Source: Bacteroidales bacterium
Lineage (GTDB): Bacteria; Bacteroidota; Bacteroidia; Bacteroidales; UBA1402
Direction: 5' to 3'
NCBI GenBank assembly: GCA_035719105.1
Contig: DASTGN010000003.1
Location: 198,979-262,978 of the forward strand
Length of the DNA: 64,000 bases
The position numbers and the translations under genes were made by a program. Below the pieces are notes generated by a model. It ran no database searches. It saw only the letters and a list, made by a program, of their open reading frames with translations, and was not told where the DNA came from. Positions 35,069 to 52,898 of the stretch are shown piece after piece; within the stretch, counting starts at the first letter, position 1, and each line of letters begins with the position of its first letter.

Positions 35069-35094
35069 CAAATACAAAAACAAAAAACAGTAAA

Positions 35095-35612: not shown

Positions 35613-35619
35613 CAGATAA

Positions 35620-37477: not shown

Positions 37478-38737
37478 ATGAAAACGATAGCCTACAATCC
37501 ACTCACCATACCAACCTATGTAATGGCAAAACCAATTGGTTCCAGTTGCAACCTGAACTGCGCCTATTGCTATTATCTTGAAAAGGCGAAATTATACGAA
37601 AATCGTAAGAACTTTATCATGAGCGACGATACGCTCGAAAAATACATTGAAAGTTATATTCAAGCTCAGCCAGTACCCGATGTCTTGTTTTCCTGGCACG
37701 GAGGAGAGACCTTGTTGCGGGATCTTTCCTTTTATCGAAAGGTGCTTGCCCTTCAAAAAAAATACGGCCGCGGACGAAGAATAGATAACTCACTGCAAAC
37801 CAATGGCGTATTATTGAATGACGATTGGTGTAGGTTCTTTAAGGACGCTAATTTTCTGATTGGAATATCCTTAGATGGACCGGAACATTGCCACGATAAA
37901 TATCGAAAAAACAAAGGAGGAGACGGCACATTCCGACAAGTGATGCGAGGCGTCGAATTGCTACAAAAGCATCAGGTAGACTTTAATACGCTCTCCGTAA
38001 TCAATAATTACAATGTCGATTTTCCGCTCGAAACGTATCATTTCTTTAAAGAAATTGGAAGTCAATACATGCAGTTCTCACCCATTGTAGAGCGATTGTC
38101 GAATGTACGACCCGATGGTTTGAACCTACTGCCACCCGACTTTAATGCCAATATAGAATCCAATGCCGGAACCGATTCCAATACAGAAACCGTTTTAGCT
38201 CCCTGGACAGTGGACGCCAAGAAATTCGGTCAATTTTATATATCCATTTTTGACGAATGGGTTCGAAAGGATGTCGGAAGGTATTTTATCCAGCTATTCG
38301 ATGCGACGTTGGCCGGAACGGTCGGAGAACAGCCAGGCGTTTGCATTTTTGGAGAAACCTGTGGACATGCCACCGCGATGGAGTTTAACGGAGATGTATA
38401 CGCCTGTGACCATTTTGTTTATCCCGAATATAAATTGGGAAACATCAAAACCCATACCATTTTTGAAATGGTCTTTTCTCAAAAGCAATTGCGATTTGGA
38501 GCAGATAAGCGTGACATGTTGCCGTCGCAATGTCTCCAATGTGAATACAAGAAACTTTGCAACGGCGAATGCCCTAAAAACCGAATAATCAATACTTCGA
38601 CCGGAGAACCCGGACTAAATTATCTATGCGAAGGTTACACCGCTTTTTGGAAACATACAAAACCTTATATGGAGTTCATGGCCAATGAATTGCGCTTTGA
38701 ACGTTCACCGGCAAACGTCATGAATTGGAACAAGTAA
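37478..38737 (+). CDS. anaerobic sulfatase-maturating enzyme-like radical SAM/SPASM protein
   Basis: The radical SAM motif is CNLNCAYCYY (CxxxCxxC). The SPASM Cys motifs include CLQCEYKKLCNGEC. The overall pattern (GGETLL, NGVLLND) matches anSME. Confidence 0.8.
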   Translation: MKTIAYNPLTIPTYVMAKPIGSSCNLNCAYCYYLEKAKLYENRKNFIMSDDTLEKYIESYIQAQPVPDVLFSWHGGETLLRDLSFYRKVLALQKKYGRGRRIDNSLQTNGVLLNDDWCRFFKDANFLIGISLDGPEHCHDKYRKNKGGDGTFRQVMRGVELLQKHQVDFNTLSVINNYNVDFPLETYHFFKEIGSQYMQFSPIVERLSNVRPDGLNLLPPDFNANIESNAGTDSNTETVLAPWTVDAKKFGQFYISIFDEWVRKDVGRYFIQLFDATLAGTVGEQPGVCIFGETCGHATAMEFNGDVYACDHFVYPEYKLGNIKTHTIFEMVFSQKQLRFGADKRDMLPSQCLQCEYKKLCNGECPKNRIINTSTGEPGLNYLCEGYTAFWKHTKPYMEFMANELRFERSPANVMNWNK

Positions 38738-38762
38738 TTACGCCGCCAAGCGACGTAATTAC
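38734..38762. terminator. stem-loop between convergent genes
   Basis: GTAATTACG-11 nt-CGTAATTAC (9-bp perfect stem) overlaps the anSME stop codon. Confidence 0.5.
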
Positions 38763-38771
38763 CTAAAAACC

Positions 38772-39197
38772 TTACTGAAAACTGATGGTCCAACGAATAC
38801 CAAAACGGTCGGTCAACATACCGTGGTACGCGCCCCAGAACATCATGGCCATCGGCATCTCTGCCTTGCCTCCCTCAGCCAAGCCATTAAAAAGAGCATC
38901 CGCTTCCTCCTTGGACGAAGCATCCAGTGAAATGGCAAAATTATCTCCAGCGGTAGTTCCGCGGCCCATTTCGGGTAAACTATCGCTGCCAAAAAGCATC
39001 GCATTGCCACCTATCGGCAATTCCACATGTAAAACTTTATTCTTTAAGGAATCCGGAACAGGCGGAAAACCCTCCATGGGAGGCATATCCTTGAAATACT
39101 GCATCATACGGAATTCCGTCTTGAAAACTTTCTTATAAAAATTGAACGCTTCTTCAGTAAATCCGTTGAAGTTCAGCGAGATAACCATATTCTTCAT
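38772..39197 (-). CDS. VOC-family (glyoxalase/PhnB-like) protein
   Basis: 141 aa. The sequences LNFNGFTEEAFNFYKKVF, GDNFAISL and FWGAYHGMLTDRFGIRW match the PhnB/YjdN-type VOC pattern. Confidence 0.7.
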   Translation of the reverse strand: MKNMVISLNFNGFTEEAFNFYKKVFKTEFRMMQYFKDMPPMEGFPPVPDSLKNKVLHVELPIGGNAMLFGSDSLPEMGRGTTAGDNFAISLDASSKEEADALFNGLAEGGKAEMPMAMMFWGAYHGMLTDRFGIRWTISFQ

Positions 39198-39257
39198 CTT
39201 GATGTCTATTTAAATTAGGTAGCAAATATACGCATCGACCATTCAAAATTCCAACAA

Positions 39258-40532
39258 TCAGTTCATCAATTTTTTCGAACAGTCGATAGCCGCAATCGTA
39301 CCGTCCGAAACCGCTGTCGTGATCTGCCTGTATTTCTTGCTCACCACGTCTCCGGCAGCATAAACGTCCGGTAAGGTCGTCTGACGATCCTCGTCCACCA
39401 AAATATACCCCCACTTGTCCAAAGATGGGAGAACCGATCCGAGCATCGAAACGTTGGCCTTAAATCCAATGAACACAAACACTCCGTCCGAAACCAATTT
39501 CGTGAACTCATGCGTCAACACATTTTCTATCGTCGCAACCATCTGACCTTCCAATTTTTCAAAAAGCCTTGGTTCCGAATCGTAAATGACTGAAATCTTG
39601 GGATCGGCCAACAACGCATCCACCGCCGTCTGGTTGGCTGTCAGCTTGTCAAACTGATGCACCATCGTAATCTTTGAAGCAAATTTGGAAATGAACAACG
39701 CTTCTTCCACAGCGGAGTTCCCACCGCCAATCACCACCACTTCCTTGCCTTCAAAATATTTGGCATCGCAGGTGGCGCAATATGAGATGCCCTTGCCCTT
39801 GAATTCCGATTCCCCAGGCGCGTTCATCGTGTTGGGTGTTGTTCCCGTGGCTAATATGATTTTTTTGAAACGAATCGTCTCCAATTCGTCAATGACAATC
39901 TCTTTTTTAACCAAATCCACCGAAGTGACATCCACCGCCAGCTTCATGTCAATGCCCGAATGCTTGGCCTGTTCGCCCATGTTGTGCGCCAACAGGTATC
40001 CCGGTTGCGGCTCTTGAAAACCCGGATAATTTGAAACCTGATGCGTGATGGCCATATAACCGCCCGGCAACGCAGGATCAATCAAAACCGTCTTGATTTT
40101 GGCCTGACCCAGATAAATTCCAGCAGTCAGACCTGCAGGGCCACCACCCAAAATCACCACATCGTAATCCGACACCATTGGTTTGCGAGCAGCATGCACC
40201 TTCGAAACCTCTTCGGGCGAAAGCATCCCGTCCAATTTCTCCATCAACTGCGATTTGCGAATGGCACCACTGACGAACTCTGTAACCTGCTTGCCCTGAT
40301 CAAAAAACAAGACCGTCGGTGAGGAAGTCACCCCAAGCTGAGTTGCCAATTCTCGGTTCGCCTGACGGAAAATCTTCAAAAACTTCAGGTTCGAACCGTA
40401 CAGTTCAGCCATTTCTTCGAACTTCGGAGCCAACGCTTCACACGGAGGACACTCGGTCGAATAAAAATCCAAAACAACTTTTCCACCGTTCAAAACCTCT
40501 TTTTCAAAATCTTTTGATTCAATTTCTTTCAT
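39258..40532 (-). CDS. thioredoxin (CPPC) fused to a low-Mr thioredoxin-reductase-like flavoprotein (CATC)
   Basis: The N-terminal Trx fold of about 105 aa carries STECPPCEAL. It is followed by the FAD motif VILGGGPAGLTAG, the redox-active SYCATCDA and the second dinucleotide motif VIGGGNSAVEEA. The NADPH-specifying HRRxxxR is replaced by HQFDKLT. Confidence 0.85.
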   Translation of the reverse strand: MKEIESKDFEKEVLNGGKVVLDFYSTECPPCEALAPKFEEMAELYGSNLKFLKIFRQANRELATQLGVTSSPTVLFFDQGKQVTEFVSGAIRKSQLMEKLDGMLSPEEVSKVHAARKPMVSDYDVVILGGGPAGLTAGIYLGQAKIKTVLIDPALPGGYMAITHQVSNYPGFQEPQPGYLLAHNMGEQAKHSGIDMKLAVDVTSVDLVKKEIVIDELETIRFKKIILATGTTPNTMNAPGESEFKGKGISYCATCDAKYFEGKEVVVIGGGNSAVEEALFISKFASKITMVHQFDKLTANQTAVDALLADPKISVIYDSEPRLFEKLEGQMVATIENVLTHEFTKLVSDGVFVFIGFKANVSMLGSVLPSLDKWGYILVDEDRQTTLPDVYAAGDVVSKKYRQITTAVSDGTIAAIDCSKKLMN

Positions 40533-40569
40533 CTGATAATCAATATAATACGATACTATAATTAAACTT

Positions 40570-41868
40570 TTACTTGAAGTAGTAGGAAGCTCCCAACGAA
40601 AGCAATTCCTTGATTGGACGGCAATCTGGAGAAGCTACCGAGCCGTTTTTATTCTTGGCAACCGACGCACAACCTCCTCCGCATGCCAACGCCAACGAAC
40701 AGTCCTTGCATTCCAAAATGGAAGTGATGTCCCTGTCCTGCCACGCTTCCACCGCTTCGGTGTTCAGCGTAACGGTCGGATAAAAAGTGCCCAGTTCCTC
40801 CCCTTGTTTCCCGACGGTTGCCGTGCAGGAATAAATGGTGCCGGTATAGTCAAACGCCCATTCCGTCTTGCAAGCAGGACAAGAATCGAACAAAGGTTGT
40901 GGTAGCTCGTCGTTCTCAGAGATGAATTTGGCAATGGAGAACGCAGGTTTGTAGAATTCGGCAATGTAGGGATGTTCTTTCAGCAGTTCATACATCGCAC
41001 CGTAAAGCGAAGCACGGTCGTACAACCGGTCTGGCGTGCTGTTGCAATGGTGAAGCTCGTAATTTCGACCAATTTGCGTCTTGAAAATTGGATTCGACGT
41101 CCAGCCTTTATCGATGGCAAAACGCGACAAGGCAGGCAGGTTGCTCAGGTTGTCCTTATCGGCCACCATCCTCAAATTCACGGAGATACCAGCTTTCAGG
41201 CTAGCATCGATGCCCTCTACGATTCTTTTGAAAGTAGGCTGCTTGCCAAGCAGGTACCGACGCGCATCGTGCACTTCTTCGGTGCCGTCCAGCGTTACTT
41301 GAACCTCCCGAATTCGGTGCTTCGACAACAAATCCAGGTACGAAGCCAACGTATAGCCGTTGGTTACAAAAGCCACTTCCAAACCAGCTTCCGTAGCTTT
41401 GTTCAAAAAATGCGTCAGCAAAAGACGCTGATTTTTACCGGGCAGCAAGGGTTCACCGCCAAAAACGGTCACATATTTACGTTTACCAGCAAAATGCACC
41501 TTCACATAATCGAAAAAGGAATCGATCACCTCGGTCGAAAGCACCTGTTTCACAGGCTCATAGCCTTCTTGATAACAATACGTGCAGGCAAAATTGCAGG
41601 AATAATTGGGCACAAAAAACAACTGGACCTCGTCTAATTCGCGGCGATCCAAAAAATCCAGATACGCATTCCGAAACGCAGATTGCTCGTCGAATTCCTG
41701 TGTCAGATAGCCTTTTTCGGCAAACGCACCTTCGGGATCGATTTCCTTAAGGTATCGATCTCTCTCCGTTTTCGAAATCAAGTCGGCACTGCCGTACAAT
41801 GGATTGACGATGAGAAACTCCCCCGGGGCATCCGCCACTGGAGCAACAATATTGTGTTTGGATTTCAT
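40570..41868 (-). CDS. radical SAM/SPASM-domain enzyme (peptide-maturase-like)
   Basis: 432 aa. CNFACTYC (CxxxCxxC) follows an N-terminal extension of about 85 aa. The C-terminal auxiliary-cluster motifs are CPACKTEW...SCTA and CKDCSLALACGGGC. Confidence 0.85.
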   Translation of the reverse strand: MKSKHNIVAPVADAPGEFLIVNPLYGSADLISKTERDRYLKEIDPEGAFAEKGYLTQEFDEQSAFRNAYLDFLDRRELDEVQLFFVPNYSCNFACTYCYQEGYEPVKQVLSTEVIDSFFDYVKVHFAGKRKYVTVFGGEPLLPGKNQRLLLTHFLNKATEAGLEVAFVTNGYTLASYLDLLSKHRIREVQVTLDGTEEVHDARRYLLGKQPTFKRIVEGIDASLKAGISVNLRMVADKDNLSNLPALSRFAIDKGWTSNPIFKTQIGRNYELHHCNSTPDRLYDRASLYGAMYELLKEHPYIAEFYKPAFSIAKFISENDELPQPLFDSCPACKTEWAFDYTGTIYSCTATVGKQGEELGTFYPTVTLNTEAVEAWQDRDITSILECKDCSLALACGGGCASVAKNKNGSVASPDCRPIKELLSLGASYYFK

Positions 41869-41890
41869 AAGCTAACTATTTGATTTTAAA

Positions 41891-41929
41891 AGGGCTGCGT
41901 CCATATGAATTCCATACCGACACAGCCCT
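41891..41929 (-). terminator. long imperfect hairpin between the small Cys-rich ORF and the radical SAM gene (partial terminator or attenuator candidate)
   Basis: AGGGCTGCGTCCATATG-aattc-CATACCGACACAGCCCT forms 14 of 17 pairs. On the minus strand it is followed by TTTAAAAT. Confidence 0.5.
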
Positions 41930-41940
41930 AAAATCCATGC

Positions 41941-42048
41941 TCAGTCGTGACAACCAGCAATGGTCACGGAAACCTTGGCACAGCATTGTGCCACTTTTTT
42001 CGTGGATTTGCCGCTGTTACAGCAGCTTTTCTTAACTAAACTTTTCAT
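41941..42048 (-). CDS. unannotated 35-aa Lys/Cys-rich peptide MKSLVKKSCCNSGKSTKKVAQCCAKVSVTIAGCHD (candidate substrate of the adjacent radical SAM/SPASM enzyme)
   Basis: ATG (42048-42046) to TGA (41943-41941) read by hand on the minus strand. It is too short for the ORF track. It lies 72 nt upstream of the rSAM gene and 74 nt downstream of the methyltransferase gene on the same strand, and contains 5 Cys in the pattern CC-x11-CC-x9-C. Confidence 0.5.
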   Translation of the reverse strand: MKSLVKKSCCNSGKSTKKVAQCCAKVSVTIAGCHD

Positions 42049-42122
42049 CAGAAAGTGAATTTAGTACGGTTCGGTTCGCATGTAAACCAAAACCAACGAT
42101 GAACGAACATGCTCGTTTTAAT

Positions 42123-42773
42123 TTAGCAACAACAACAGCCAGTCGACCGTTTTACGCCAGAAATGGTGAAACTGCAGACTTCGGCCTTCCCTTTTGCATA
42201 AGGTTGCGATTCTTCCAAAATACGGATTTCTTTGAATCCGGCTGTCAACAGCATTTGCAGGTATTCGGGCTTGGTAACCGAACCAGCCCAGCATTCAGCC
42301 ACTGCTTCAGGATCGTTTCGGTACTCCTCGGGAATGGGCTGCGTGGCGTAAATATCGCTCACCACGAACCGCCCACCCGTACGCAAAATACGGAACACTT
42401 CGTTCCAAACTCCCTGTTTATCAGCGCTGTGATTGATAGTACAATTGGAAATAACCAAATCGACCGTTCCATCTTGCAAAGGTAGATGTTCGAGTTCAGC
42501 CTTGAGGATGGTGGCATTGGTAATCGCGAACTTTTCGAGATTCGCCTTGGCTTTGGCCACCATGCCCTCAGACAGATCAATGCCATAAACATGGCCCTTG
42601 GGACCGACCTTTTCAGCCAGTCGCATCACGTCGTTGCCTCTGCCGCTGCCTAAATCCACACAAACATCCCCCAACAGAGCCTCTGCATGAAATACAGCAC
42701 CCCCACAGGACAAACAGCAGGAATCATCCTTGCTTAAAAGCGTATAACGTTGATTGATAGCTTCGTTCGACAT
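42123..42773 (-). CDS. ArsM-like SAM-dependent methyltransferase with a C-terminal CCCC tail
   Basis: The start is MSNEAINQRY (ATG at 42773). The N-terminal Cys cluster is DDSCCLSCGG and SAM motif I is VDLGSGRGNDV. The sequences VISNCTINH and ECWAGS resemble the conserved ArsM cysteines. The protein ends in KRSTGCCCC. Confidence 0.75.
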   Translation of the reverse strand: MSNEAINQRYTLLSKDDSCCLSCGGAVFHAEALLGDVCVDLGSGRGNDVMRLAEKVGPKGHVYGIDLSEGMVAKAKANLEKFAITNATILKAELEHLPLQDGTVDLVISNCTINHSADKQGVWNEVFRILRTGGRFVVSDIYATQPIPEEYRNDPEAVAECWAGSVTKPEYLQMLLTAGFKEIRILEESQPYAKGKAEVCSFTISGVKRSTGCCCC

Positions 42774-42774
42774 A

Positions 42775-43014
42775 TTATTCGGGAATTTCGTCTGTGTCGG
42801 ACGGTTTATTGGCAACCGGCTTCTTCTCAAAGGTATTAAATAATAGTCCACCGACCAATACCCCCCAAATGGAACTCATGATTGGGTTGGAAGTAATGGG
42901 ACATGTACCGCTGGTACAACCCACAAAATGATAATATAAATAGCCACCGACGCCACCCAGAATACCTCCAAGAATGGTCAAACGATGCTTTCGCAAATAA
43001 ATCGGACACTGCAT
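42775..43014 (-). CDS. small two-TM membrane protein with a CxxxC motif (DUF6132-like)
   Basis: The sequence is MQCPIYLRKHRLTILGGILGGVGGYLYYHFVGCTSGTCPITSNP...VLVGGLLFNTF. The stop is 1 nt from the methyltransferase ATG. The start could instead be at 43044. Confidence 0.55.
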   Translation of the reverse strand: MQCPIYLRKHRLTILGGILGGVGGYLYYHFVGCTSGTCPITSNPIMSSIWGVLVGGLLFNTFEKKPVANKPSDTDEIPE

Positions 43015-43084
43015 AATGCTATAAATTAGTTGATTTTCAAACAAATATTATCTACTAAGAATATTTTCCTATTGAAATTATTTG

Positions 43085-43092
43085 CAAATATA
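43085..43092 (-). promoter_or_regulatory. Bacteroidota -7 promoter box for the minus-strand Cys-rich cluster
   Basis: The reverse complement is TATATTTG. It lies 41 nt upstream of the 43044 start and 71 nt upstream of the 43014 start. Confidence 0.4.
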
Positions 43093-43135
43093 AACATATT
43101 TTTGATTCGTACATACAATCTTACACAATTTTTGT

Positions 43136-43143
43136 TATTTTTG
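43136..43143 (+). promoter_or_regulatory. Bacteroidota -7 promoter box upstream of the HU gene
   Basis: TATTTTTG lies 58 nt before the ATG at 43201. Confidence 0.4.
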
Positions 43144-43200
43144 CTATTATGGATATTGTCTTTCTAGGTTCTTATTAATGTACCCGTTAAAAAAACAACC

Positions 43201-43473
43201 ATGAACAAAGCCAGTTTAATCAGCCTCGTTTCTGAAATGAGCGACATGAGCAAATCCGACGTGAAAAAAGTGCTTGAAGCTACCGTAGCAGCACTAAACA
43301 AAGGCCTGTCAAAAGGCGAAAAAGTATTGCTTACCGGATTTGGATCATTCAACGTGGTGGAACGCGCACCCAGGGTAGGCATCAACCCGAAAACCCTGAA
43401 ACCCATGAACATCCCCGCCAAAAAATTTGTAAAATTCGTACCCGGGAAGGACATCACGAGTAGCATTCATTGA
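43201..43473 (+). CDS. hup: HU-family DNA-binding protein
   Basis: 90 aa with the HU signature LTGFGSFNVVERAPRVGINPKT. Confidence 0.9.
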   Translation: MNKASLISLVSEMSDMSKSDVKKVLEATVAALNKGLSKGEKVLLTGFGSFNVVERAPRVGINPKTLKPMNIPAKKFVKFVPGKDITSSIH

Positions 43474-43515
43474 TGCTGCAGACTCTCGTTCTAAGTCTCA
43501 GCGTTCAATTCCGCC

Positions 43516-44427
43516 ATGAATCAAAATCCAGTTTGTAAACTCTTCAACATCCAGTACCCCATCATCCAGGGCGGAATGGTTTGGTGTAGCGGTTGGCGCC
43601 TCGCTTCAGCAGTAAGCAACGCCGGTGGGCTCGGACTCATCGGCGCCGGCTCCATGCATCCCGAAGTGCTACGCGAACACATCCAAAAGTGCCGTGCCGC
43701 CACTTCAAAACCCTTCGGTGTCAATATCCCCTTGATGTACCCACAAATCCAGGACATCATGCAAATCGTTGTAGATGAGCACGTCCCCATCGTCTTCACC
43801 TCTGCAGGCGGCCCCAAAACCTGGACCCCATTTTTACACGAACACGGCATTTTAGTCGCTCACGTCGTTTCAAACACCCTTTTTGCCCGCAAAAGCGCCG
43901 AAGCCGGCGTCGACGCCATCGTAGCCGAAGGCTTTGAAGCAGGCGGTCACAACGGCCGCGAAGAAACGACCACCTTCTGCCTCATACCCCTAGTGCGCCA
44001 AGCCACCACCCTACCCCTTATCGCAGCAGGCGGCATTTCCTCTCGCCCCAGCTATCAAGCCGCCTTTATTCTCGGCGCAGACGCCGTTCAAATGGGAACC
44101 CGCTTCGCTTTGAGCACCGAAAGCTCCGCCCACCCTCTCTTCAAGGCTCGCTGCCGTTCATTAAACGAAGGCGACACCAAACTCCTACTTAAAAAGCTAG
44201 CACCCACCCGATTAGTCGATAATCCATTTTCACAAACCGTCTTGGAAGCCGAAAATCGCGGTGCCTCACCCGAGGAACTCCGCTCTCTCCTTGGTCACGG
44301 CCGCCCCAAACTCGGTATTTTCGAAGGCAACCTCACCGATGGCGAACTGGAGATTGGCCAGTCTGCCGGCTCCATTCGTCACGAAGAAACAGTTGCCGAA
44401 ATCTTTGCTGATTTACTTCTACAGTAG
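43516..44427 (+). CDS. nitronate monooxygenase / FabK-like FMN oxidoreductase
   Basis: The NMO pattern is IQGGMVW, GVNIPL, AEGFEAGGH and AAGGI, with MGTRF also present. Confidence 0.82.
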   Translation: MNQNPVCKLFNIQYPIIQGGMVWCSGWRLASAVSNAGGLGLIGAGSMHPEVLREHIQKCRAATSKPFGVNIPLMYPQIQDIMQIVVDEHVPIVFTSAGGPKTWTPFLHEHGILVAHVVSNTLFARKSAEAGVDAIVAEGFEAGGHNGREETTTFCLIPLVRQATTLPLIAAGGISSRPSYQAAFILGADAVQMGTRFALSTESSAHPLFKARCRSLNEGDTKLLLKKLAPTRLVDNPFSQTVLEAENRGASPEELRSLLGHGRPKLGIFEGNLTDGELEIGQSAGSIRHEETVAEIFADLLLQ

Positions 44428-45237
44428 TAACGATAATTTGCTTTTCTCTTGTTTCCTTTCTGCATTTTTGAAAATTGGCCCTTAGCCGTTAGATCCAGAT
44501 ACTTTGATCCATTTTCTGCAACCTCCACGCTAAGAGCTACGCCCAGAATCCTTTTGCCTGCGACCCTTTATTTGCAGAACTTCTTTATACTGTGTCTGCC
44601 TATTACAAAAGTGAGATTTTTATTATCGCCATCAGGAGGGCAATTTTGCCGCTCTTTTCGCTACTGGAGTAACGATAATATGCCTTTCCATTGCTTCGTT
44701 TCTGTGTTTTTAAAAACATCCCTCATTCACTTAACTGCGACCCAAAATTTGCAGAACTTCTTTATACTGTGTCTGCCTATTACAAAAGTGAGATTTTTAT
44801 TATCGCCATCAGGAGGGCAATTTTGCCGACCTTTTCGCTACTGGAGTAACGATAATATGCCTTTCCATTGCTTCGTTTCTGTGTTTTTAAAAACACATCC
44901 TTCATTCACTTAACTGCGACCCAAAACTTGCAAAACTTCGTTTGCGCAGTCTGCCTATACAAAAGTGAGATTTTTATTATCTCTATCAGGGTAGCAATTT
45001 TGCCGCTCTTTTCGCTACTGGAGTAACGATAATATGCCTTTCCATTGCTTCGTTTCTGTGTTTTTAAAAACACATCCTTCATCCATTAAACTGCGACCCA
45101 AAACTTGCAAAACTTCGTTTGCGCAGTCTGCCTATACAAAAGTGAGAATTTTATTATCACTATCAGGGTAGCAATTCAAATTATCGCTACCAGGAGGGCG
45201 ATTTTGCCGCCCTTTTCGCTACTGGGGAAACGATAAT
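44419..45237. repeat. tandem array of a 177-bp unit (unit lengths 242/177/177/204 bp), each unit ending in AACGATAAT
   Basis: The anchor CTAC(T/A)G(G/T)AGTAACGATAAT starts at 44419, 44661, 44838, 45015 and 45219. The first copy contains the NMO gene stop codon. Each full unit carries the 16-bp palindrome GTGTTTTTAAAAACAC (44881 and 45058; a degenerate copy at 44704) and a ~58-nt element with ATTATCG...CGATAAT ends. Confidence 0.9.
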
Positions 45238-45250
45238 AGGATTTTACTTT

Positions 45251-45450
45251 TTAGGGTTGGTGGATGTGGTTGGAGGTGGTTATGAGTATTTGGAGGTGGT
45301 TATGAGTATTTGGAGGTAGTTATTAGTAGTTGGAGGTAGTTATGAGTAGTTGGAGGTAGTTTTGAGTAGTTGGAGGTAGTTTTGAGTAATTGGAGGTGAT
45401 TATGGGTAGTTGGAGGTAGTTATGAGTCTTTGGAGGTAGTTGGGAGCGGT
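45251..45450. repeat. tandem 20-bp repeat, about 10 copies (TGGAGGTRGTTATGAGTAKT), iteron-like
   Basis: Copies start at exactly 20-bp spacing from 45271 to 45431, with a degenerate copy at 45251. The plus strand is almost free of C. Confidence 0.9.
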
Positions 45451-45594
45451 TAGTTTAATTAGTTCAAAATTGATTCTGAGAAAAATTGGGAAGTATTCAG
45501 AAAAGTGTGTCAGCCCTAATTCCTAAAGCAATTCAAATTACCGTTACCAGAATAGCAGTTAAAATTGCCCTAAATGTAGTAGAAATAGTAGTAT

Positions 45595-45631
45595 AAGAAG
45601 AAGAAGAAGAAGAAGTATAAGTAGTAGTAGT
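45595..45631. repeat. trinucleotide microsatellites (AAG)7 then (GTA)3-4
   Basis: The sequence aagaagaagaagaagaagaagtataagtagtagtag was read directly. Confidence 0.85.
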
Positions 45632-45635
45632 TCAT

Positions 45636-45748
45636 ATTATCGCTATCAGGGTAGCAATTCAAATTATCGCTATCAGGGTAGCAATTCAAATTACTGCTAT
45701 CAGGTGGGCGATTTTGCCGCTCTTTTCGCTACTAAAGTAACGATAATA
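45636..45748. repeat. 27-bp repeat x3 (ATTATCGCTATCAGGGTAGCAATTCAA) plus terminal GCCGCTCTTTTCGCTACTAAAGTAACGATAAT motif
   Basis: Units start at 45636, 45663 and 45690. The block is related to the internal element of the 177-bp units and ends in AACGATAAT at 45739-45747. Confidence 0.88.
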
Positions 45749-45764
45749 AAAAACCACTAAAAAC

Positions 45765-46010
45765 AAGGTTAGTTAAGACACGAAAGGGTGAGTTAAGACA
45801 CGAAAGGGTGAGTTATGCCACGAAAGGGCAAGCTGAGCAAAGGCAAGCCACGAAAGGGTGAGTCACATTACGAAAGGGCAAGTCAAACCACTCAATGCCA
45901 TACAAAGAAAATCAAACCGAAGCTACGCAAGCCGAAGCCACCAAAGCCGAAGGTACGCAAGCCGAAGCCACGAAAGCCGAAGCCACGCAAAATGAAATGA
46001 AATGAAACGA
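45765..46010. repeat. short tandem repeats: CGAAAGGGTGAGTTAAGACA (20-bp spacing, one 30-bp) x5, then a ~30-bp ACGCAAGCCGAAGCCACNAAAGCCGAAG unit x2-3
   Basis: CGAAAGGG occurs at 45781, 45801, 45821, 45851 and 45871. GCCGAAGCCA occurs at 45931 and 45961. The track ORF 45815-46000 is a translation of these repeats. Confidence 0.85.
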
Positions 46011-46039
46011 AACCAAGCAAGCCGAGTCAAAGGAAAAAA

Positions 46040-46432
46040 CTAAAGCAAATCCGCTGCTCCAAGCGGCTCATACGGCCCATCCTTGCATTCGAAAATGGTG
46101 CTGCCAGGCTCCAGCACTTCGATGTTGTGCCATTGGCCTGCGGGGATGTTGACGCCATAAAGGCCTTGCAGGGGGTCCAGGATCAGGTCTTCTGAGACGG
46201 TGCCATCGGCGTTGTAAAACAGGACACGGATGCGGCCGCGGAGGAGGACATAGGTTTCTTGAGTGGCGGGGTGGCGGTGGATGGGCAATAGAGTGCCGGG
46301 TTCCAGGGCGTTAAGCATGCGTTGAGAGGGGGAATCGGCGCTGGAATGGAAATTGAAATTCATGCGAAGGCGAGACGAGAGTTTGGCTTCATCCGAGATT
46401 CGATCTAACAAAGCATTATCGATGACTTGCAT
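46040..46432 (-). CDS. WbuC-family cupin-fold protein
   Basis: The start is MQVIDNALLDRISDEAKLSSRLR (ATG at 46432). The cupin motifs are LLPIHRHPATQETYVLLRG and GQWHNIE. Confidence 0.72.
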   Translation of the reverse strand: MQVIDNALLDRISDEAKLSSRLRMNFNFHSSADSPSQRMLNALEPGTLLPIHRHPATQETYVLLRGRIRVLFYNADGTVSEDLILDPLQGLYGVNIPAGQWHNIEVLEPGSTIFECKDGPYEPLGAADLL

Positions 46433-46482
46433 ATATAAAGGTATTAATGTGAACCAACGAGAACCAACGGGAACCACGTGAA

Positions 46483-48411
46483 TCAACCAACTTCCGAGAC
46501 TTCGTCGTATATTTCGAAAGGAGAGTTTTGGCTTTTAAACTCGGGAATCAGTTCCTTCATAGCTCGAATCGTACAAGGAATATCCACGATGTAGGCGCAA
46601 TCGATAGCCTTTGTTAGTTTATTGCAGACATCATCGAAATCGTACTGACGCACCTTCGCAACGGTAATCTTTTCGTGCTCTGTGGGCAGGGTCGTTTCCT
46701 TGTCATTCAGCAGTTCCTCGTAGAGTTTTTCGCCGGGTCTCAGGCCGGTAATTTGAATCTTGATGTCGACATCGGGCAGCAAACCGGCCAATTCGATCAT
46801 TTTTCTGGCCAAATCGATGATCTTGACGGGTTCACCCATGTCAAAGACGTAGATTTCACCCGATTTGCCAAACGAAGCGGCTTCCAGAACCAAGCGGCAG
46901 GCTTCGGGAATGGTCATGAAATAGCGGATAATATCGGGGTGAGTCACCGTAACCGGACCACCACGTTCAATCTGCGATTTGAAGTGCGGAATCACGGAAC
47001 CGTTGGAACCCAACACATTGCCGAAACGAGTGGTTACGAATTGAATCGGATTCCCCATTCGGGCAGCTTCCTTGGCCAAGGTCTGAACGTAGATTTCGGC
47101 CATGCGTTTGGAAGCACCCATCACATTGGTAGGGTTCACAGCCTTGTCGGTGGAAATCATGACGAAACGCTCCACACCGTATTGGGCAGAGAAGCTACTT
47201 AAATTCTTGGTACCAAGCACATTGACCAAAATAGCCTCGCAAGGATTTTCCTCCATCATCGGCACATGCTTGTAGGCAGCAGCATGGTAGACAACCTGCG
47301 GCCTAAACTTGCGGAACACAAAGCCCAAGCGGTTCACACTGCGGACATCACCAATCACCGTTTCAAAAACGAGATCCGGGTAAATCAACTCCAACTCCAA
47401 ACGAAGGTTGTGAAGCGGGGTTTCAGCCAAGTCGAACAAAACAAGCGACTGCGGTCTGAACTGAGCCAGTTGGCGAACCAATTCACTACCAATGGAACCG
47501 GCAGCACCCGTAATGAGAATCACCTTGTTGCGAACCTGGCTCTCAATACGCTCCATATCGATGCGAATTTCCTCCCTACCCAACAAATCCTCGAACTGAA
47601 TAGGCTTCATCTGAACATGCATTTGACCGGGGCTATCCACACCCTCGAACGGTGGTGATACCATCACCTCCAACCCTTTTTCCAAACAGGTGGAGATAAA
47701 AGCCTCTTCTTGGCGAGCTGATATGTAATCGGGAAATAAAATGGTCAATATCTGATTCTTACGCAAAAACACATCCATATTGTCGCTTTCCAAATCGTAC
47801 ACAGGCAAATCGTGGATGCGCATGCTGCGTGATTTGCCGTCACGTACCAAAAAACCCTGCACCAAATGGTTGTTCCTCGGGCTTTTGTTGATCCATTGAG
47901 CCAAGGCCAAGCTGTGTCCGCCGATACCGTACACTAACGTGTTCTTGCCCTTCTTGCCCGAATAGCTCATGGTGTAGAAATACAAAAAAACCACGATGAG
48001 CCGCATGGACAACATCAAAGAGAGCGAATAAATCATCAGGTTTTGCACCAAAAACAAGCGGTAGGGAACATCCAACTGCATCGCTACGATCAAACCCAAG
48101 AAAACCACATTGGATGAAAACAGAGCGAGGAATACCCGCCACAATTCCTGCAGGTTGGAATGACGAATCAGTCCGCGATATGACTTGAAAAAGTAGAAGG
48201 AAACCGCATTAACTATCAAATAAATGAAACACCATACGAGAACGTTTGGAATTTGATGGTCGGCGTCCACTTTGGATCGAATGTACACCGCACCAAAATA
48301 CGCAGCAGTACATAAAAACAAATCAATCGAATAAATTATCCAACGATTGAACATGGATTTACCCATGAGTTTCGTGAAAAATCTTCTTAGAACATTTTGA
48401 ATTTCATTCAT
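46483..48411 (-). CDS. CapD/WbpM-type polysaccharide biosynthesis protein (membrane-anchored NDP-sugar 4,6-dehydratase/epimerase), copy 1
   Basis: Four N-terminal TM helices are followed by the Rossmann motif ITGAAGSIGSEL and a Polysacc_synt_2-type SDR core (YHAAAYKHVPMME, STDKAVNPTNVMGASKR). Confidence 0.88.
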   Translation of the reverse strand: MNEIQNVLRRFFTKLMGKSMFNRWIIYSIDLFLCTAAYFGAVYIRSKVDADHQIPNVLVWCFIYLIVNAVSFYFFKSYRGLIRHSNLQELWRVFLALFSSNVVFLGLIVAMQLDVPYRLFLVQNLMIYSLSLMLSMRLIVVFLYFYTMSYSGKKGKNTLVYGIGGHSLALAQWINKSPRNNHLVQGFLVRDGKSRSMRIHDLPVYDLESDNMDVFLRKNQILTILFPDYISARQEEAFISTCLEKGLEVMVSPPFEGVDSPGQMHVQMKPIQFEDLLGREEIRIDMERIESQVRNKVILITGAAGSIGSELVRQLAQFRPQSLVLFDLAETPLHNLRLELELIYPDLVFETVIGDVRSVNRLGFVFRKFRPQVVYHAAAYKHVPMMEENPCEAILVNVLGTKNLSSFSAQYGVERFVMISTDKAVNPTNVMGASKRMAEIYVQTLAKEAARMGNPIQFVTTRFGNVLGSNGSVIPHFKSQIERGGPVTVTHPDIIRYFMTIPEACRLVLEAASFGKSGEIYVFDMGEPVKIIDLARKMIELAGLLPDVDIKIQITGLRPGEKLYEELLNDKETTLPTEHEKITVAKVRQYDFDDVCNKLTKAIDCAYIVDIPCTIRAMKELIPEFKSQNSPFEIYDEVSEVG

Positions 48412-48433
48412 TAGTCAGGTAGCATGAAACATA

Positions 48434-48441
48434 CAAAAATA
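48434..48441 (-). promoter_or_regulatory. Bacteroidota -7 promoter box upstream of capD-like copy 1
   Basis: The reverse complement is TATTTTTG, 23 nt upstream of the ATG at 48411 and just downstream of the terminator at 48484-48513. Confidence 0.4.
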
Positions 48442-48483
48442 ACAAAAAGTTTACTTCTATAGCGGTTTATCAAAGAATTGTTC

Positions 48484-48513
48484 AAAAAAAAAGCCGTTCC
48501 AAAATGAAACGGC
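48484..48513 (-). terminator. rho-independent terminator after the epimerase gene
   Basis: On the minus strand, GCCGTT-tcattttgg-AACGGC is followed by TTTTTTTTT. Confidence 0.75.
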
Positions 48514-48545
48514 CATTAATTACTTTAATATCAATTTATTACAAA

Positions 48546-49610
48546 TTATATTTTATCCCAAGCGACATACCACTGAGCAAAGGCCTCCAAACCCTCCTTC
48601 AGGGTCGTCGAAGGTTTGTAACCGAACTCCTTTTCCAAGTCCGAAACATCGCAATACGTATTCAAAACATCCCCTGGCTGCATGGGTAAAAACTCCTTGA
48701 CAGCCTCTTTTCCAAGTGCTTGCTCCAGCGTTTCGATGTAATCCATCAAACGGACAGGAGCCGAGCTTCCAATGTTGTATATTCGGTATGGCTCCGACGA
48801 AGTCGCCGGATCAGGCGCCTGCGCATTCCAATCCGCTGCAGCCGTGGCCGGCTTGTTGATGACCCGAACCACCCCCTCAATGATATCCGCAATGTAGGTG
48901 AAATCCCTGCCCATGTCCCCCTTATTGAAAACCTTGAGCGTTTTGCCGTGCAAGATGGCATCGGCAAAAAGCATCGGCGACATGTCCGGCCTGCCCCACG
49001 GCCCATAAACCGTAAAAAACCGCAAACCCGTAGTGGGCATCTGATACAGTTTCGAAAACACATGCGCCATCAACTCGTTGCTCTTCTTGGTGGCCGCATA
49101 AAACGAAACCGGATGGTTCACTGATTCGTGCGTGGAAAACGGCATGTGCCCGTTCAGCCCATAAACGCTGCTCGAACTGGCATACACCAAATGTTCCACC
49201 CGATGCTTCCGCGATTGTTCCAAAATATTGGTGAAACCCACGATGTTGCTGTTTACGTAGGCCATCGGATTCTCGATGGAGTACCGCACGCCAGCCTGCG
49301 CACCCAGGTTGCAAACCACCCCGAAGGCAATCTCCTCGAACAAGGAAGCCAAGTTTTCACTGTCCTCCATTTTTATCCGGATGAACCGATAGCCCTTGTG
49401 TTTTGCGCTGGGAGTCAGTTTGTTCCATTGAATAGCCTCCTCAGTAACGCCCAACTCCGCCAATCGCGCGTACTTCAATCGAACGTCGTAATAATCGTTG
49501 ATGTTATCCAGTCCCACCACTTGCCAGCCCTCAGCCAACAAACGTTCCGAAAGCCAGAAACCGATGAAACCGGCACCACCAGTCACCAAAATCGTCTTGT
49601 TTTGTATCAC
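48546..49610 (-). CDS. NAD-dependent epimerase, UDP-glucuronate 4-epimerase-like
   Basis: The motifs are VTGGAGFIGF, DNINDYYDV and YAATKK (YxxxK). The length of about 354 aa is typical of the Cap1J/LpsL type. Confidence 0.82.
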   Translation of the reverse strand: MIQNKTILVTGGAGFIGFWLSERLLAEGWQVVGLDNINDYYDVRLKYARLAELGVTEEAIQWNKLTPSAKHKGYRFIRIKMEDSENLASLFEEIAFGVVCNLGAQAGVRYSIENPMAYVNSNIVGFTNILEQSRKHRVEHLVYASSSSVYGLNGHMPFSTHESVNHPVSFYAATKKSNELMAHVFSKLYQMPTTGLRFFTVYGPWGRPDMSPMLFADAILHGKTLKVFNKGDMGRDFTYIADIIEGVVRVINKPATAAADWNAQAPDPATSSEPYRIYNIGSSAPVRLMDYIETLEQALGKEAVKEFLPMQPGDVLNTYCDVSDLEKEFGYKPSTTLKEGLEAFAQWYVAWDKI

Positions 49611-50347
49611 TTTCCTGTTGTAAAAAGTTCATTCACAGCCTCGTACGAAGCCAAATCTCCAATATCGAAGCGTTTGCCGGGCAACGGCCAGGCGTACACT
49701 TCCGTCTGCTTGCAGAGCCAAGCCATCAGGTTTCCAGGAGCATCGGCTCCGCAACCGTTTTCCAACGCTTGGCGAACCAAGGGCAAATCGTCCTTGCGGT
49801 AAAAGTAAAACGGCGGTACCGCCCAATGCGAAGGCGGCAGCTGCGGTTTCTCATGCATGGCGATCACCCGCATGTTTTGGTCCGCCTCCAAAACGCCCGT
49901 TTTTTGCAAAGCCTTGATCGAAGGCTCCTCGTGGCAGGTCAGGCAGCTCCTACCCTTCTCCACGGCAAACCGGACAAAAGGCGCGAACGAGAAATCCACC
50001 ACATTGTCGCCGGCCAAAACCAGCAAATCGTCTTTGATGTGGAGGCTGTCCAGCACAAACAAAATATCTTTTACGGCGCCCAAGCGGTTGTCGTTGGTGG
50101 TGGTGCCGTCGTTCACAATCCGAACCGGTTTGATAAACGCTTTGTTTTTCAGCCAGTTTTGGAAAACGATTGAAAAGGTGGCATTTGTTACTACAATATG
50201 TTCATCAATCGCATCAATTTTTTCCAGATCCCCAAGTAAACGATCCAAGATGCTGATGCCACCGATTACGAGCAACGGCTTCGGAAAATTCTGTGTCAAA
50301 GGATACAACCGCGTCGCATATCCTGCCGCTAAAATCAGTGCCTTCAT
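49607..50347 (-). CDS. sugar-1-phosphate nucleotidyltransferase
   Basis: The N-terminal motif is MKALILAAGYATRLYPLTQNFPKPLL. The stop overlaps the epimerase start by 4 nt. Confidence 0.8.
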   Translation of the reverse strand: MKALILAAGYATRLYPLTQNFPKPLLVIGGISILDRLLGDLEKIDAIDEHIVVTNATFSIVFQNWLKNKAFIKPVRIVNDGTTTNDNRLGAVKDILFVLDSLHIKDDLLVLAGDNVVDFSFAPFVRFAVEKGRSCLTCHEEPSIKALQKTGVLEADQNMRVIAMHEKPQLPPSHWAVPPFYFYRKDDLPLVRQALENGCGADAPGNLMAWLCKQTEVYAWPLPGKRFDIGDLASYEAVNELFTTGK

Positions 50348-50363
50348 ATCTTAAAAACGAATA

Positions 50364-50425
50364 TTTTATTATCACTACAATAGTAGCATTTTTACCTCAA
50401 ATATTGCTATCATACTAACGATAAT
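50364..50425. repeat. solitary copy of the ATTATC...AACGATAAT element
   Basis: The sequence is TTTTATTATCACTAcaatagtagcatttttacctcaaatattgctatcatacTAACGATAAT. The first 14 nt are identical to the start of the element in the fourth 177-bp unit, at about 45150-45163. The copy fills the gap between the nucleotidyltransferase start and the RES toxin stop. Confidence 0.75.
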
Positions 50426-50875
50426 CTACAAAACCAGTCTTCCATCCCAATCAAATTCCTCCACCTCTACCAACCGAATCATCTCGCCAAAATCCGGATG
50501 TTGTGTGTTTATCAAATAATTACGTTCCTGAGGAATTAATACTGAAGGAACGCTCAAAACCAATGACTCACTCCGCCGATACCATTCCGCACCTATTTCT
50601 CTCAAATGTCCAAAACTAGAAATCTGTTTCCAATGGTCGGGCAAAGACTCTGGGAGGAGCAATTGACAAGAATCGACGGGAACTTCCAACACCATCACCT
50701 TATACGGATTATTTAGGAACTGTCCACTCCGTCTAGCCAACATCTCCAACGCCGCTAAAGACCGCGTGGCGCTTGAATATAAAATCCACTGCCCATCGTG
50801 GTTCCACCTCCCGGCAGAACCTGAAGCTTTTAGATCTGCGGCATATTCAGCACGGCATATTCGATAGCTAAGCAT
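50426..50875 (-). CDS. RES-domain toxin
   Basis: 149 aa. GRWNHDGQWILYSSATRSLAALEML and the conserved downstream Ser region give the R...E...S pattern. It is paired with an Xre/DUF2384-type antitoxin 3 nt upstream. Confidence 0.82.
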   Translation of the reverse strand: MLSYRICRAEYAADLKASGSAGRWNHDGQWILYSSATRSLAALEMLARRSGQFLNNPYKVMVLEVPVDSCQLLLPESLPDHWKQISSFGHLREIGAEWYRRSESLVLSVPSVLIPQERNYLINTQHPDFGEMIRLVEVEEFDWDGRLVL

Positions 50876-50878
50876 CGG

Positions 50879-51304: not shown

Positions 51305-51341
51305 CTTCTATTATTTCCTAGGTTCCATTTGCTAATCCATA

Positions 51342-51349
51342 CAAATATA
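51342..51349 (-). promoter_or_regulatory. Bacteroidota -7 promoter box upstream of the antitoxin gene
   Basis: The reverse complement is TATATTTG, 38 nt upstream of the ATG at 51304. Confidence 0.4.
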
Positions 51350-51446
51350 GAACATTTTACCCACACAAACAAGAAAATTTACCTTATTTGTAGTACATTC
51401 GCTTAAAATAATCAAATTATTTGTGCCGTCATAAACGAAATTATAC

Positions 51447-51454
51447 TAACTTTG
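51447..51454 (+). promoter_or_regulatory. Bacteroidota -7 promoter box upstream of the ATPase gene
   Basis: TAACTTTG lies 70 nt before the ATG at 51524. Confidence 0.35.
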
Positions 51455-51523
51455 CCAATATTTCATGCAGAATATGTGATAATAAACACATAATCCGCAC
51501 GTAAAACGTGAAAAAGTGAAAAC

Positions 51524-52846: not shown

Positions 52847-52898
52847 CCAATGCTACGTACGCCTGTTATCAATATATTCATGCGTCCACAGATATTGA

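Follow-up and report, generated by a model that had tools for sequence, protein, structure and literature searches.

A probable locally amplified cluster of a small palindromic repeat at the stop codon of a nitronate monooxygenase-like gene in Bacteroidales

Introduction

At one locus of a Bacteroidales genome, a tandem array begins inside the stop codon of a nitronate monooxygenase-like (NMO) gene, which raises the question of what is repeated there and how a gene came to share its last codons with it. A first-pass annotation of the window (the whole 64-kb stretch of DNA analysed here) had described non-coding 177-bp units and suggested serial site-specific insertion or duplication at an attachment site. 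In our analysis, the region is probably a cluster in which a small non-coding palindromic repeat, designated E58, has been amplified locally. We regard E58 as a previously undescribed family within a familiar kind of bacterial repeat (REP/REPIN/BIME- or MITE-like) and not as a new kind of system.

Results

The array is part of a 1.6-kb repeat-rich gap (44428–46039, 1612 nt) between two convergent genes. The NMO gene on the left is 100% identical to HET9570180.1 (TPA MAG 'Bacteroidales bacterium'), and the DUF6016 gene on the right closes, at its 3′ end, a long minus-strand cluster for polysaccharide biosynthesis. Every array scoring 60 or higher in Tandem Repeats Finder (TRF) within the window falls inside this gap, which also has 20-mer (8.6 copies), 27-mer (3 copies), 20-mer (3 copies), and 15-mer (5 copies) arrays. 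The gap is probably under weak constraint. The features are as follows, with no strand assigned to the repeats.

43516–44427, plus strand: NMO gene (Pfam PF03060, E = 3.6e-58)
44419–44437: solo right arm of E58 (R0), CTACAGTAGTAACGATAAT, the first "anchor"; 80% identity over 56 nt to later units
44438–44621: linker of unit 1, an older diverged copy with 65 extra bases (unit alignment)
44622–44679: E58 copy 1, 58 nt (covariance models R1, 89.6 bits, and R2, 76.9 bits)
44680–44798: 119-nt linker of type b/A, with TGTTTTTAAAAACA and the hairpin CTGCGACCC..GCAG
44799–44856: E58 copy 2 (covariance models)
44857–44975: 119-nt linker of type b/B, with a perfect 16-bp palindrome at 44881 (unit alignment)
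44976–45033: E58 copy 3 (covariance models)
45034–45152: 119-nt linker of type b/B, with a perfect 16-bp palindrome at 45058 (unit alignment)
45153–45237: E58 copy 4 and one extra 27-nt left half-site, 85 nt in total (repeat families, covariance model)
45269–45441: 20-bp minisatellite, 8.6 copies, GTTGGAGGTAGTTATGAGTA (TRF score 255)
45533–45590: degenerate E58 copy (R1, 30.7 bits; R2, 32.1 bits)
45636–45747: E58 copy 5 and two extra 27-nt left half-sites, 112 nt, with the sixth anchor at 45729 (TRF 27-mer, 3 copies; covariance model)
45767–45828: 20-bp minisatellite, 3.1 copies, GGTGAGTTAAGACACGAAAG (TRF; confirmed by contig L162)
45913–45990: 15-bp minisatellite, 5.2 copies, CAAGCCGAAGCCACG (TRF; confirmed by L162)
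46040–46486, minus strand: convergent DUF6016/cupin-like gene, right boundary of the gap (Pfam PF19480)
50368–50425: solitary E58 copy (covariance model, 67.6 bits; identical in the short-read contig L162)

The array consists of the solo arm at the NMO stop codon followed by four blocks of linker and E58, with linkers of 119–184 nt. The "anchor" on which the units had originally been defined is the right arm of E58. Pattern matching placed it at 44419, 44661, 44838, 45015, and 45219, in agreement with the reported units of 242, 177, 177, and 204 bp. The sequence CTACNGNAGTAACGATAAT is exact at the first four positions and has two mismatches at 45219, the sixth anchor at 45729 has one mismatch, and dinucleotide shuffles gave 0 matches to the pattern. 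TRF likewise recovered the units as a 177-bp period with 3.3 copies and 93% matches (44594–45176). No left-arm partner was found upstream of the solo arm R0. The A-A-B-B order proposed for the unit subtypes applies to the 3′ parts, whereas the 5′ parts run a-b-b-b in the unit alignment; the units are mosaics (aA, bA, bB, bB), which fits unequal exchange. A perfect 16-bp palindrome had been assigned to each full unit, but it is present only in units 3 and 4, being 14 bp in unit 2 and missing from unit 1.

Several other readings of the tandem structure were rejected. Quasi-palindrome correction would predict an exact complement, which the B sequence is not, and it was rejected as a source of the A/B differences. 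As the first-pass annotation had noted, there are no unique spacers. The 119-nt linkers are themselves repeated at 90% or more and no cas domains were found in the neighbouring genes, which rejects a CRISPR. A diversity-generating TR/VR system was rejected for lack of a reverse transcriptase, and integron attC sites for lack of intI and of GTTRRRY at the element ends. A 154-aa ORF (44449–44913) does run through the array, although no plausible ORF had been recognized there, because 177 is a multiple of 3. Neither this ORF nor a 61-aa basic ORF matched Pfam, and a coding repeat or pseudogene (177 = 59 codons) was rejected accordingly. Because the translation of the 154-aa ORF is junk-like and has no Pfam match, the description of the array as non-coding stands.

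An expanded or mis-joined repeat in the metagenome-assembled genome might also produce such an array. Independent short-read contigs (SRR25158224) match the window at 100% over 37516–44599 and 45664–54411. Both end at the array, and the contigs of relatives also tend to stop just after NMO. Because the short-read contigs break inside the array, the independent support ends at 44599 and resumes at 45664, on either side of the 44600–45663 segment. However, both edges of the array are confirmed at 100% identity, with E58 copy 5 confirmed from 45664 onward by L162; the units differ at many positions; and in the L163 lineage, assemblies from several independent samples run through comparable arrays. 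Exact repeats inside the array reach 82 bp at most, which leaves a unique path that an assembler with k > 82 could resolve. We therefore regard an assembly artefact as very improbable.

The repeated element itself had been noticed as a sub-element of about 58 nt with inverted ends (ATTATCG…GTAGC…GCTAC…CGATAAT). It is real: three of the array copies, the solitary copy at 50368, and the L084 copy all measure exactly 58 nt, with an overall range of 57–58 nt. E58 is composed of two inverted half-sites (ATTATCGCTAYC..GTAGC / GCTAC..TARCGATAAT), is AT-rich (GC 0.26–0.48), and has arms of 7–17 bp; the L170 copy has perfect 17-bp arms. The arms are conserved and the interior is diverged. In an alignment of 12 copies from 5 lineages, 77% of cells are paired in the fully nested hairpin, and this value falls to 26–36% when the partners are slid by 1–2 columns. 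GTAG and CTAC are internal, face each other, and are paired, with GTAG in about 5 of the 12 copies, among which we found no unpaired terminal GTAG or CGTC tag and no CGTC. E58 is discrete, palindromic, and constant in length, and it has the short imperfect palindrome and the inverted doublets forming one hairpin that characterize REPs and REPINs, together with MITE-type features (terminal inverted repeats, small size, AT richness, and a non-coding, intergenic nature).

A hairpin of this kind could act in RNA, and the units might be small-RNA genes in tandem or form a structured 3′ UTR, with transcription starting at a promoter of each unit or reading through from NMO and ending at the E58 hairpin. 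Both the units and E58 copy 5 contain terminator-like hairpins with T-rich tails, several stem positions are G-T on the plus strand and would be G-U pairs in RNA, and REPs have been reported as 3′-UTR RNA elements (PMC3733652; bioRxiv 10.64898/2026.03.23.713779). On the other hand, E58 exhibits no compensatory covariation, its pairing being no better than column shuffles, and a selected RNA fold was rejected on this ground. The linkers are not conserved between lineages, and the solitary copy at 50368 is oriented in the model like the array copies yet lies among minus-strand genes. A scan of the sigma-70 type, which is ill-suited to Bacteroidota, gave no promoter-like sites. In Rfam 15, only a tRNA elsewhere in the window passed the gathering score, and a permissive scan of the gap returned a sole match (nadA, E = 0.21) inside the DUF6016 gene. 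A known RNA family was thus rejected for the array at both thresholds, and small-RNA genes or a structured 3′ UTR appear unlikely. The repeat also had no blastn match in plasmid and phage collections, in line with the initial failure to assign the array to a known family.

The NMO ORF ends at 44427, and its last two sense codons and stop codon, CTA CAG TAG (44419–44427), lie inside the first anchor, as originally described. In this clade, the conserved NMO core ends in ...DLL followed by 1–4 variable residues, which in the window are LQ*. In the window, NMO takes its last two codons and its stop codon from the E58 arm. The part of the units that overlaps NMO is the 19-nt E58 right arm only. 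Local alignment of the units with the NMO coding sequence upstream of the arm gave no similarity above 300 shuffles, and a derivation of the units from decayed NMO 3′ coding copies was rejected. Such a derivation is true only in the relative L083, whose 71-bp unit contains approximately 47 nt of NMO coding sequence and a relic of an alternative NMO 3′ end.

The overlap of the anchor with the stop codon had suggested an attachment site at the NMO 3′ end, with the units as remnants of repeated site-specific integration. The genes found between NMO and PS2 vary with the lineage, indicating an insertion hot spot, and the L083 unit would also be consistent with this explanation. However, the window units have only the 19-nt arm in common with NMO, whole 177-bp units including the linkers are repeated and not just the boundaries, and the same arm is found at the ends of unrelated genes. 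In addition, the annotation of the contigs covering 37.5–54.4 kb of the window, and that of the syntenic loci, includes no integrase. Therefore, the duplication part of the original proposal holds, whereas its site-specific insertion part is highly unlikely.

The distribution of E58 was examined in approximately 200 kb of clade sequence from one syntenic neighbourhood. The element is present at three distinct intergenic sites, two of which are in the window.

Site 1, NMO 3′ flank: present in the window, L163, L170–173, and L178/L084; degenerate copy in L083
Site 2, RES 3′ end and spacer upstream of the NTP-transferase gene: present in the window (50368) and L169 (15077); empty in L178 and L163
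Site 3, DUF2271 3′ flank: present in L169 (2764) and L180 (4870); empty in L163, L174, and L178

The solitary window copy directly follows the TAG stop codon of a RES toxin gene (50426–50875, minus strand) and stands upstream of the NTP-transferase gene, whose start (50347) is 20 nt away; its positional orthologue is at 15077–15141 in L169. E58 is seated at gene 3′ ends, and a TAG stop codon is overlapped or directly abutted in three cases. In L180, the TAG of a 370-aa gene falls within an E58 arm. The empty sites at two loci do not have clean boundaries, and flank comparison revealed no consistent target-site duplication. Matches to R1 and R2 are confined to this uncultured Bacteroidales clade. 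The exact 21-base core had 0 matches in 185k species representatives and the JGI metagenomes, and a widespread family was rejected on this ground. Neither PF01797 (Y1/RAYT) nor another cognate transposase was found by Pfam among 27 window ORFs scanned or in the annotation of loci L001 and L162–L180, and the sequences analysed contain no IS that could be a parent carrying E58 terminal repeats. Within one uncultured Bacteroidales clade, E58 is dispersed in intergenic space at three sites, being present or absent according to lineage; the dispersal claim rests on three sites because the search covered one neighbourhood.

A pair of E58 copies bracketing the Xre-RES cassette as a composite transposon was also considered, but the match at 51412–51487 has an E of about 9, as expected by chance, and was unconvincing on inspection. 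As a separate observation, E58 is kept at orthologous sites across lineages with conserved arms, which could mean a host function and not mobility.

Downstream of NMO, the gap varies from −4 nt in L169 (complete genome) to the 1612 nt of the window, and it is almost missing in L169, L082, and L174. What the NMO gaps of different lineages have in common is limited to E58 and short flanks, the linkers being lineage-specific. The following E58 arrays were observed.

Window: 177 bp (93%)
L163: about 208 bp (215/201 bp, 81%)
L083: 83 bp, 1.9 copies
L178: 71 bp, 2 copies
L169, different site: 78 bp, 2 copies (97%)

E58 has been amplified in tandem independently in several sister lineages, each with its own unrelated linkers. 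The reiteration of a palindromic unit with its linker, differing between lineages, is a feature of BIME-2 and REPIN ordered clusters. A homology of the 20-mer array to the CCAAC-rich linker of L163 was rejected, the two having a compositional resemblance only and no blastn match.

The density of half-sites in the gap, about 15 in both orientations within 1.3 kb against a background frequency elsewhere, might instead reflect a binding-site array for a DNA-binding protein (nucleoid-associated, gyrase target, or partition factor), with the conserved 12-mer ATTATCGYTAYC as the putative site. The arms are conserved as sequence and not through compensatory changes, and BIMEs are bound by IHF and gyrase (PMC2817692). 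However, single E58 copies occur at assorted gene ends, and GC skew is negative on both sides of the locus (about −0.12 before and −0.15 after). Because the skew keeps its sign, an origin or terminus is unlikely here; a dif site and iterons were also rejected. Close relatives are entirely without the gap, and there is therefore no essential chromosomal site at this position. We consider a binding array doubtful as an explanation of the gap. Such an array would be compatible with a REP- or BIME-like origin.

Discussion

We favour a locally amplified E58 cluster, which could have arisen as follows. One E58 arm would have come to abut the conserved ...DLL end of NMO, providing the last two codons and the stop codon. 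Unequal recombination or replication slippage between directly repeated arms may then have reiterated the block of linker and E58, possibly aided by stalling at the hairpins. The outcome would be the solo arm, the four blocks, further E58 copies with duplicated 27-nt half-sites, and the minisatellites. E58 itself might have been spread by a RAYT/IS200-type or other trans-acting transposase, or by recombination, and it may serve as a 3′-end RNA hairpin or a protein-binding platform.

The first-pass annotation held that a match to a known MITE or REP family would speak against its interpretation; E58 behaves like REPs, REPINs, and MITEs in kind but does not match them in sequence. The E58 hairpin, made of two inverted half-sites, has counterparts in the REPIN ordered clusters of Pseudomonas fluorescens SBW25 (PMC3116915) and in enterobacterial BIME-2, a tandem arrangement of BIME-1-like units (PMC2817692). 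REPINs are also mostly single extragenic copies, with ordered clusters that reiterate the unit with its flanks; their interior is less conserved than the arms, and their clusters are length-polymorphic between strains (PMC3116915). The largest published REPIN cluster has four REPINs and one extra REP in more than 700 bp (PMC3116915), compared with four E58 copies and one solo arm in about 820 bp here. E58 differs in being AT-rich (26–48% GC) and 58 nt long, against REPIN spacings of 71–110 nt; in the compensatory changes reported for REPINs (PMC3116915), which were not seen in E58; and in the lack of a RAYT gene among the window ORFs and annotated loci.

The GTAG REP superfamily resembles E58 in lying downstream of ORFs, between unidirectional or convergent genes, and in its G-T stem pairs (PMC3733652). 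REP termini often give a TAG to flanking ORFs, a stop donation that they share with E58, and both form tandem clusters with flanking DNA, the REP clusters being dimers reiterated along with it (PMC3733652). However, the GTAG tag is terminal and unpaired in REPs and internal and paired in about half of the E58 copies, and the 5–13-bp, GC-rich REP stems contrast with the long, AT-rich, interrupted hairpin of E58 (PMC3733652). A published survey did not find GTAG-type REPs in Bacteroidetes (PMC3733652).

Within Bacteroidales, BrickBuilt and MITE464/PgRS of Porphyromonas gingivalis are likewise strictly intergenic and AT-rich with terminal inverted repeats, are associated with 19–41-nt tandem direct repeats, cause assembly breaks, and have no homologues outside the lineage (PMC4596501). 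Their terminal repeats are unrelated to those of E58 (GAGACCTTTGCA against ATTATCGCTA). BrickBuilt and MITE464/PgRS contain internal minisatellites, and BrickBuilt is hundreds of bp long (PMC4596501), whereas here the minisatellites stand beside the 58-nt E58, and E58 and its linker are reiterated. Unlike these MITEs, E58 has no target-site duplications or parent IS in the sequences examined.

A stronger version of this relationship is that E58 belongs to an unrecognised Bacteroidales REPIN-like system, with an AT-rich hairpin, no classical GTAG tag, and a mobilising enzyme that is possibly not a RAYT, in which the enzyme or the hairpin actively drives local amplification. We hold this to be improbable, if somewhat less so than the small-RNA and binding-array explanations. 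Active amplification would explain the at least five independent arrays beside E58, and the arrays might then be a selected hypervariable insulator or 3′-end platform at the edge of a polysaccharide locus.

An amplified E58 cluster accounts for the recurrent breaks directly behind NMO in assemblies of this clade. The array is likely a variable-number tandem-repeat locus that can be used in strain typing. The MIRU minisatellites of Mycobacterium tuberculosis, in the description attributed to Supply et al., are reportedly tandem intergenic units of 40–100 bp with ends overlapping the flanking stop and start codons and with variable copy numbers; they are also said to contain small in-frame ORFs, to lie inside operons, and to have no palindromic element at their core. 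E58 also extends the catalogue of such elements, which is poor for this phylum, by an AT-rich palindromic family of the REPIN/MITE-like kind. Of wider interest, the same palindrome has seeded independent amplifications with different linkers in several sister lineages and at two loci, offering a natural system in which to ask whether hairpin-promoted duplication is passive (slippage or unequal exchange) or enzymatic. It is also a clean case of a repeat donating the last codons and the stop codon of a gene.

Architecture of the repeat array

Two convergent genes enclose the 1612-bp gap that holds the array: the nitronate monooxygenase-like (NMO) gene on the left and a DUF6016/cupin gene on the right, the latter terminating a long minus-strand polysaccharide-biosynthesis cluster. 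The NMO protein is HET9570180.1, from a 271-kb contig of the TPA MAG 'Bacteroidales bacterium'. The remainder of the window is gene-dense, and all arrays that Tandem Repeats Finder scored at 60 or higher across the 64 kb are confined to this gap (a 177-mer, 20-mer × 8.6, 27-mer × 3, 20-mer × 3 and 15-mer × 5). The sign of the GC skew does not change from one side to the other.

43516-44427, plus strand: NMO gene
44419, 44661, 44838 and 45015: exact copies of the anchor CTACNGNAGTAACGATAAT
44594-45176: period of 177 bp, 3.3 copies, 93% identity (Tandem Repeats Finder)
45219 and 45729: fifth and sixth anchors, with two mismatches and one mismatch, respectively
50368-50425: solitary E58 directly after the TAG of the RES toxin gene, 20 nt ahead of the next gene's start
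DUF6016/cupin gene, minus strand: right border of the gap

The anchor, the short sequence used to delimit the units, had no match in shuffled sequence. Because the NMO-like ORF ends at 44427, the first anchor spans its last two codons and stop (CTA CAG TAG). The sub-element of about 58 nt described in the first-pass annotation is a discrete unit, here named E58, consisting of two inverted half-sites. It is exactly 58 nt long in three array copies, and two more copies carry one or two additional 27-nt left half-sites. The anchor corresponds to the right arm of E58, and at the NMO stop this arm stands alone; therefore, the array is a solo arm followed by four repetitions of linker plus E58.

The anatomy given in the first-pass annotation was largely correct. 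Its A-A-B-B subtypes hold for the 3′ parts of the units, but the 5′ parts run a-b-b-b, so the make-up is mosaic. The perfect 16-bp palindrome ascribed to each full unit is present in units 3 and 4 and missing from the others. A plausible ORF had been denied; a 154-aa ORF does traverse the array, since the 177-bp period is divisible by three, but it has no family match and a junk-like translation.

The position of the first anchor on the NMO stop had suggested serial integration at an attachment site. The units share only the E58 arm with NMO, and nothing upstream of this arm resembles the coding sequence beyond chance; we regard this explanation as very improbable. The NMO protein core ends in ...DLL followed by 1–4 lineage-specific residues, and the tail of the window's protein (LQ*) is the E58 arm. 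Likewise, the TAG of a neighbouring 370-aa gene in L180 (L numbers denote contigs or loci of related Bacteroidales) lies inside an E58 arm.

Two short-read contigs from SRR25158224 are 100% identical to the window as far as 44599 and again from 45664, both breaking at the array. An assembly artefact, which such breaks might suggest, is highly unlikely. The longest exact repeat within the array is 82 bp, and the array is thus resolvable with longer k-mers. The feature is real.

Two short ORF-like features accompany these repeats. In each 20-bp unit GTTGGAGGTAGTTATGAGTA (45269-45441), GGAGG is followed after 5 nt by ATG, with a stop in the same frame five codons on (MSSWR*). Shine-Dalgarno sites are little used in Bacteroidota, so the arrangement is probably due to chance. 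A 61-aa ATG ORF (45815-46000, plus strand) spans the 20-mer and 15-mer arrays; its very basic, K/P/R-rich product (...KPKPRKPKPRK...) matches no Pfam family, and the repeats probably gave rise to the ORF incidentally.

Distribution of E58

The exact E58 core was found in none of 185k species genomes and in no JGI metagenome, and there were no plasmid, phage or Rfam matches. We retrieved NMO loci by a protein-guided search (74–89% identity) and searched them with covariance models, which found E58 restricted to this clade at three sites.

Sites of E58
NMO 3′ flank: L163-168, L170-173 and L178/L084; degenerate copy in L083
RES/NTP-transferase spacer: window and L169, the latter with a RES 3′-end remnant beside E58
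DUF2271 3′ flank: L169 and L180

In L178 and L163, the genes flanking the RES site abut with no E58 between them, and the spacer at the DUF2271 3′ flank is absent from L163, L174 and L178.

Directly after the NMO stop, L178 has a perfect 8-bp-stem hairpin, GCGATTAT-TTGCAT-ATAATCGC (10910-10931, equivalent to L084 5908-5929), whose arms differ little from the arm words of E58. In the more distant L085 and L086, too, the NMO stop is followed by 'ACGATAAT', a word that therefore may be old at this position.

Recurrent amplification

When the NMO gaps were compared across lineages, only E58 and short flanks were common, and these flanks show that the copies in L083, L163c and L170 occupy orthologous positions. 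Each lineage has its own linkers. NMO overlaps the next gene by a few nucleotides in L082 and in the complete genome L169; the post-NMO gap measures 73 nt in L174, 136 in L180, 517 in L178, 775 in L163 and 1612 in the window.

Tandem units containing E58 or its arm
Window: 177 bp × 4
L163: 215/201 bp, 81% identical
L083: 83 bp × 1.9
L083, 5886-6160: 71 bp × 3.5, including the last ~47 nt of the NMO coding sequence and the stop
L178: 71 bp × 2
L169, unrelated second site: 78 bp × 2, 97%

Short minisatellites of 9–21-bp period adjoin E58 in L163, L169, L178 and the window; those in L163 and L169 include CCAAC/GTTGG-rich ones.

This anatomy is close to that of published systems. REPIN 'ordered clusters' repeat a hairpin doublet in tandem with its flanking sequence, the largest comprising four REPINs and an extra REP (PMC3116915). 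REP clusters reiterate dimers in tandem along with flanking DNA, and REP termini provide the ORFs beside them with TAG stops (PMC3733652). BIME-2, which is length-polymorphic, is built of tandem BIME-1-like units (PMC2817692), and MITEs of Porphyromonas gingivalis, also of the Bacteroidales, contain internal minisatellites (PMC4596501). Based on this likeness, we read the array as a local amplification, similar to a BIME or REPIN cluster, of a palindromic repeat family that is new and restricted to this clade. Unequal exchange or slippage between arms in direct repeat would most likely account for the amplification. E58 is not an established member of the REP-RAYT family proper, because its GTAG tag lies outside the canonical position and no Y1 transposase was seen among the scanned window ORFs or annotated loci. 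What is chiefly of interest is that one small palindrome has seeded amplification repeatedly and independently.

The final, partial copy of the L083 71-bp array (NMO identity 86%) ends in ...GCCGACCTTCTATGCAGAGG, resembling the NMO 3′ end of a different lineage (L084, ACCGACCTTCTATCCTAG); the array looks like a scar of recombination on the conserved margin of a variable locus. Contigs of many independent samples stop 300–600 bp after NMO (L170/L171, on a 246-kb contig, L172, L173, L083, L084 and L166), and in this clade the repeats associated with E58 seem to break assemblies systematically.

Structure and sequence of E58

Across 12 copies, 77% of cells pair in a fully nested hairpin, compared with 26–36% when partners are slid by 1–2 columns. 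These copies show no compensatory covariation, and their pairing is no better than in column shuffles, indicating that the palindromy stems from conserved arm sequences. At orthologous sites, the arms are kept and the interior has diverged. A DNA-level inverted repeat or protein recognition would fit E58 better than a selected RNA fold, and several G-T positions would still allow a role as RNA. Tandem sRNA genes are an unlikely description of the array. A protein-binding platform is also rather improbable, and would be compatible with local amplification of the palindrome.

Neighbouring variable modules

An Xre-RES toxin-antitoxin pair and an adjacent AAA_14/DUF4143 ATPase gene lie inside the polysaccharide cluster (50426-52846). 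The pair is placed differently in sister lineages: between NTP-transferase and GHMP-kinase genes in L178 (17759-18637) and the window, and between NMO and DUF6016 in L180 (7715-9936). It is absent from L174, and only a RES 3′ remnant persists in L169 (15142-15265). By its placement, the pair behaves as a putative small mobile cassette; one of its junctions carries E58. Another possible insertion spot is the stretch at 34949-37195, where a tRNA gene (34984-35068) is followed by ~500 bp of non-coding sequence and a HipA-like toxin module, made up of a HipA N-terminal domain (35847-36191) and a subsequent 335-aa ORF. At 56000-64000, in the distal part of the polysaccharide cluster, GC drops from ~0.45 to 0.34–0.37 and GC skew turns strongly negative (about −0.2), as is typical of variable glycan loci subject to horizontal exchange.
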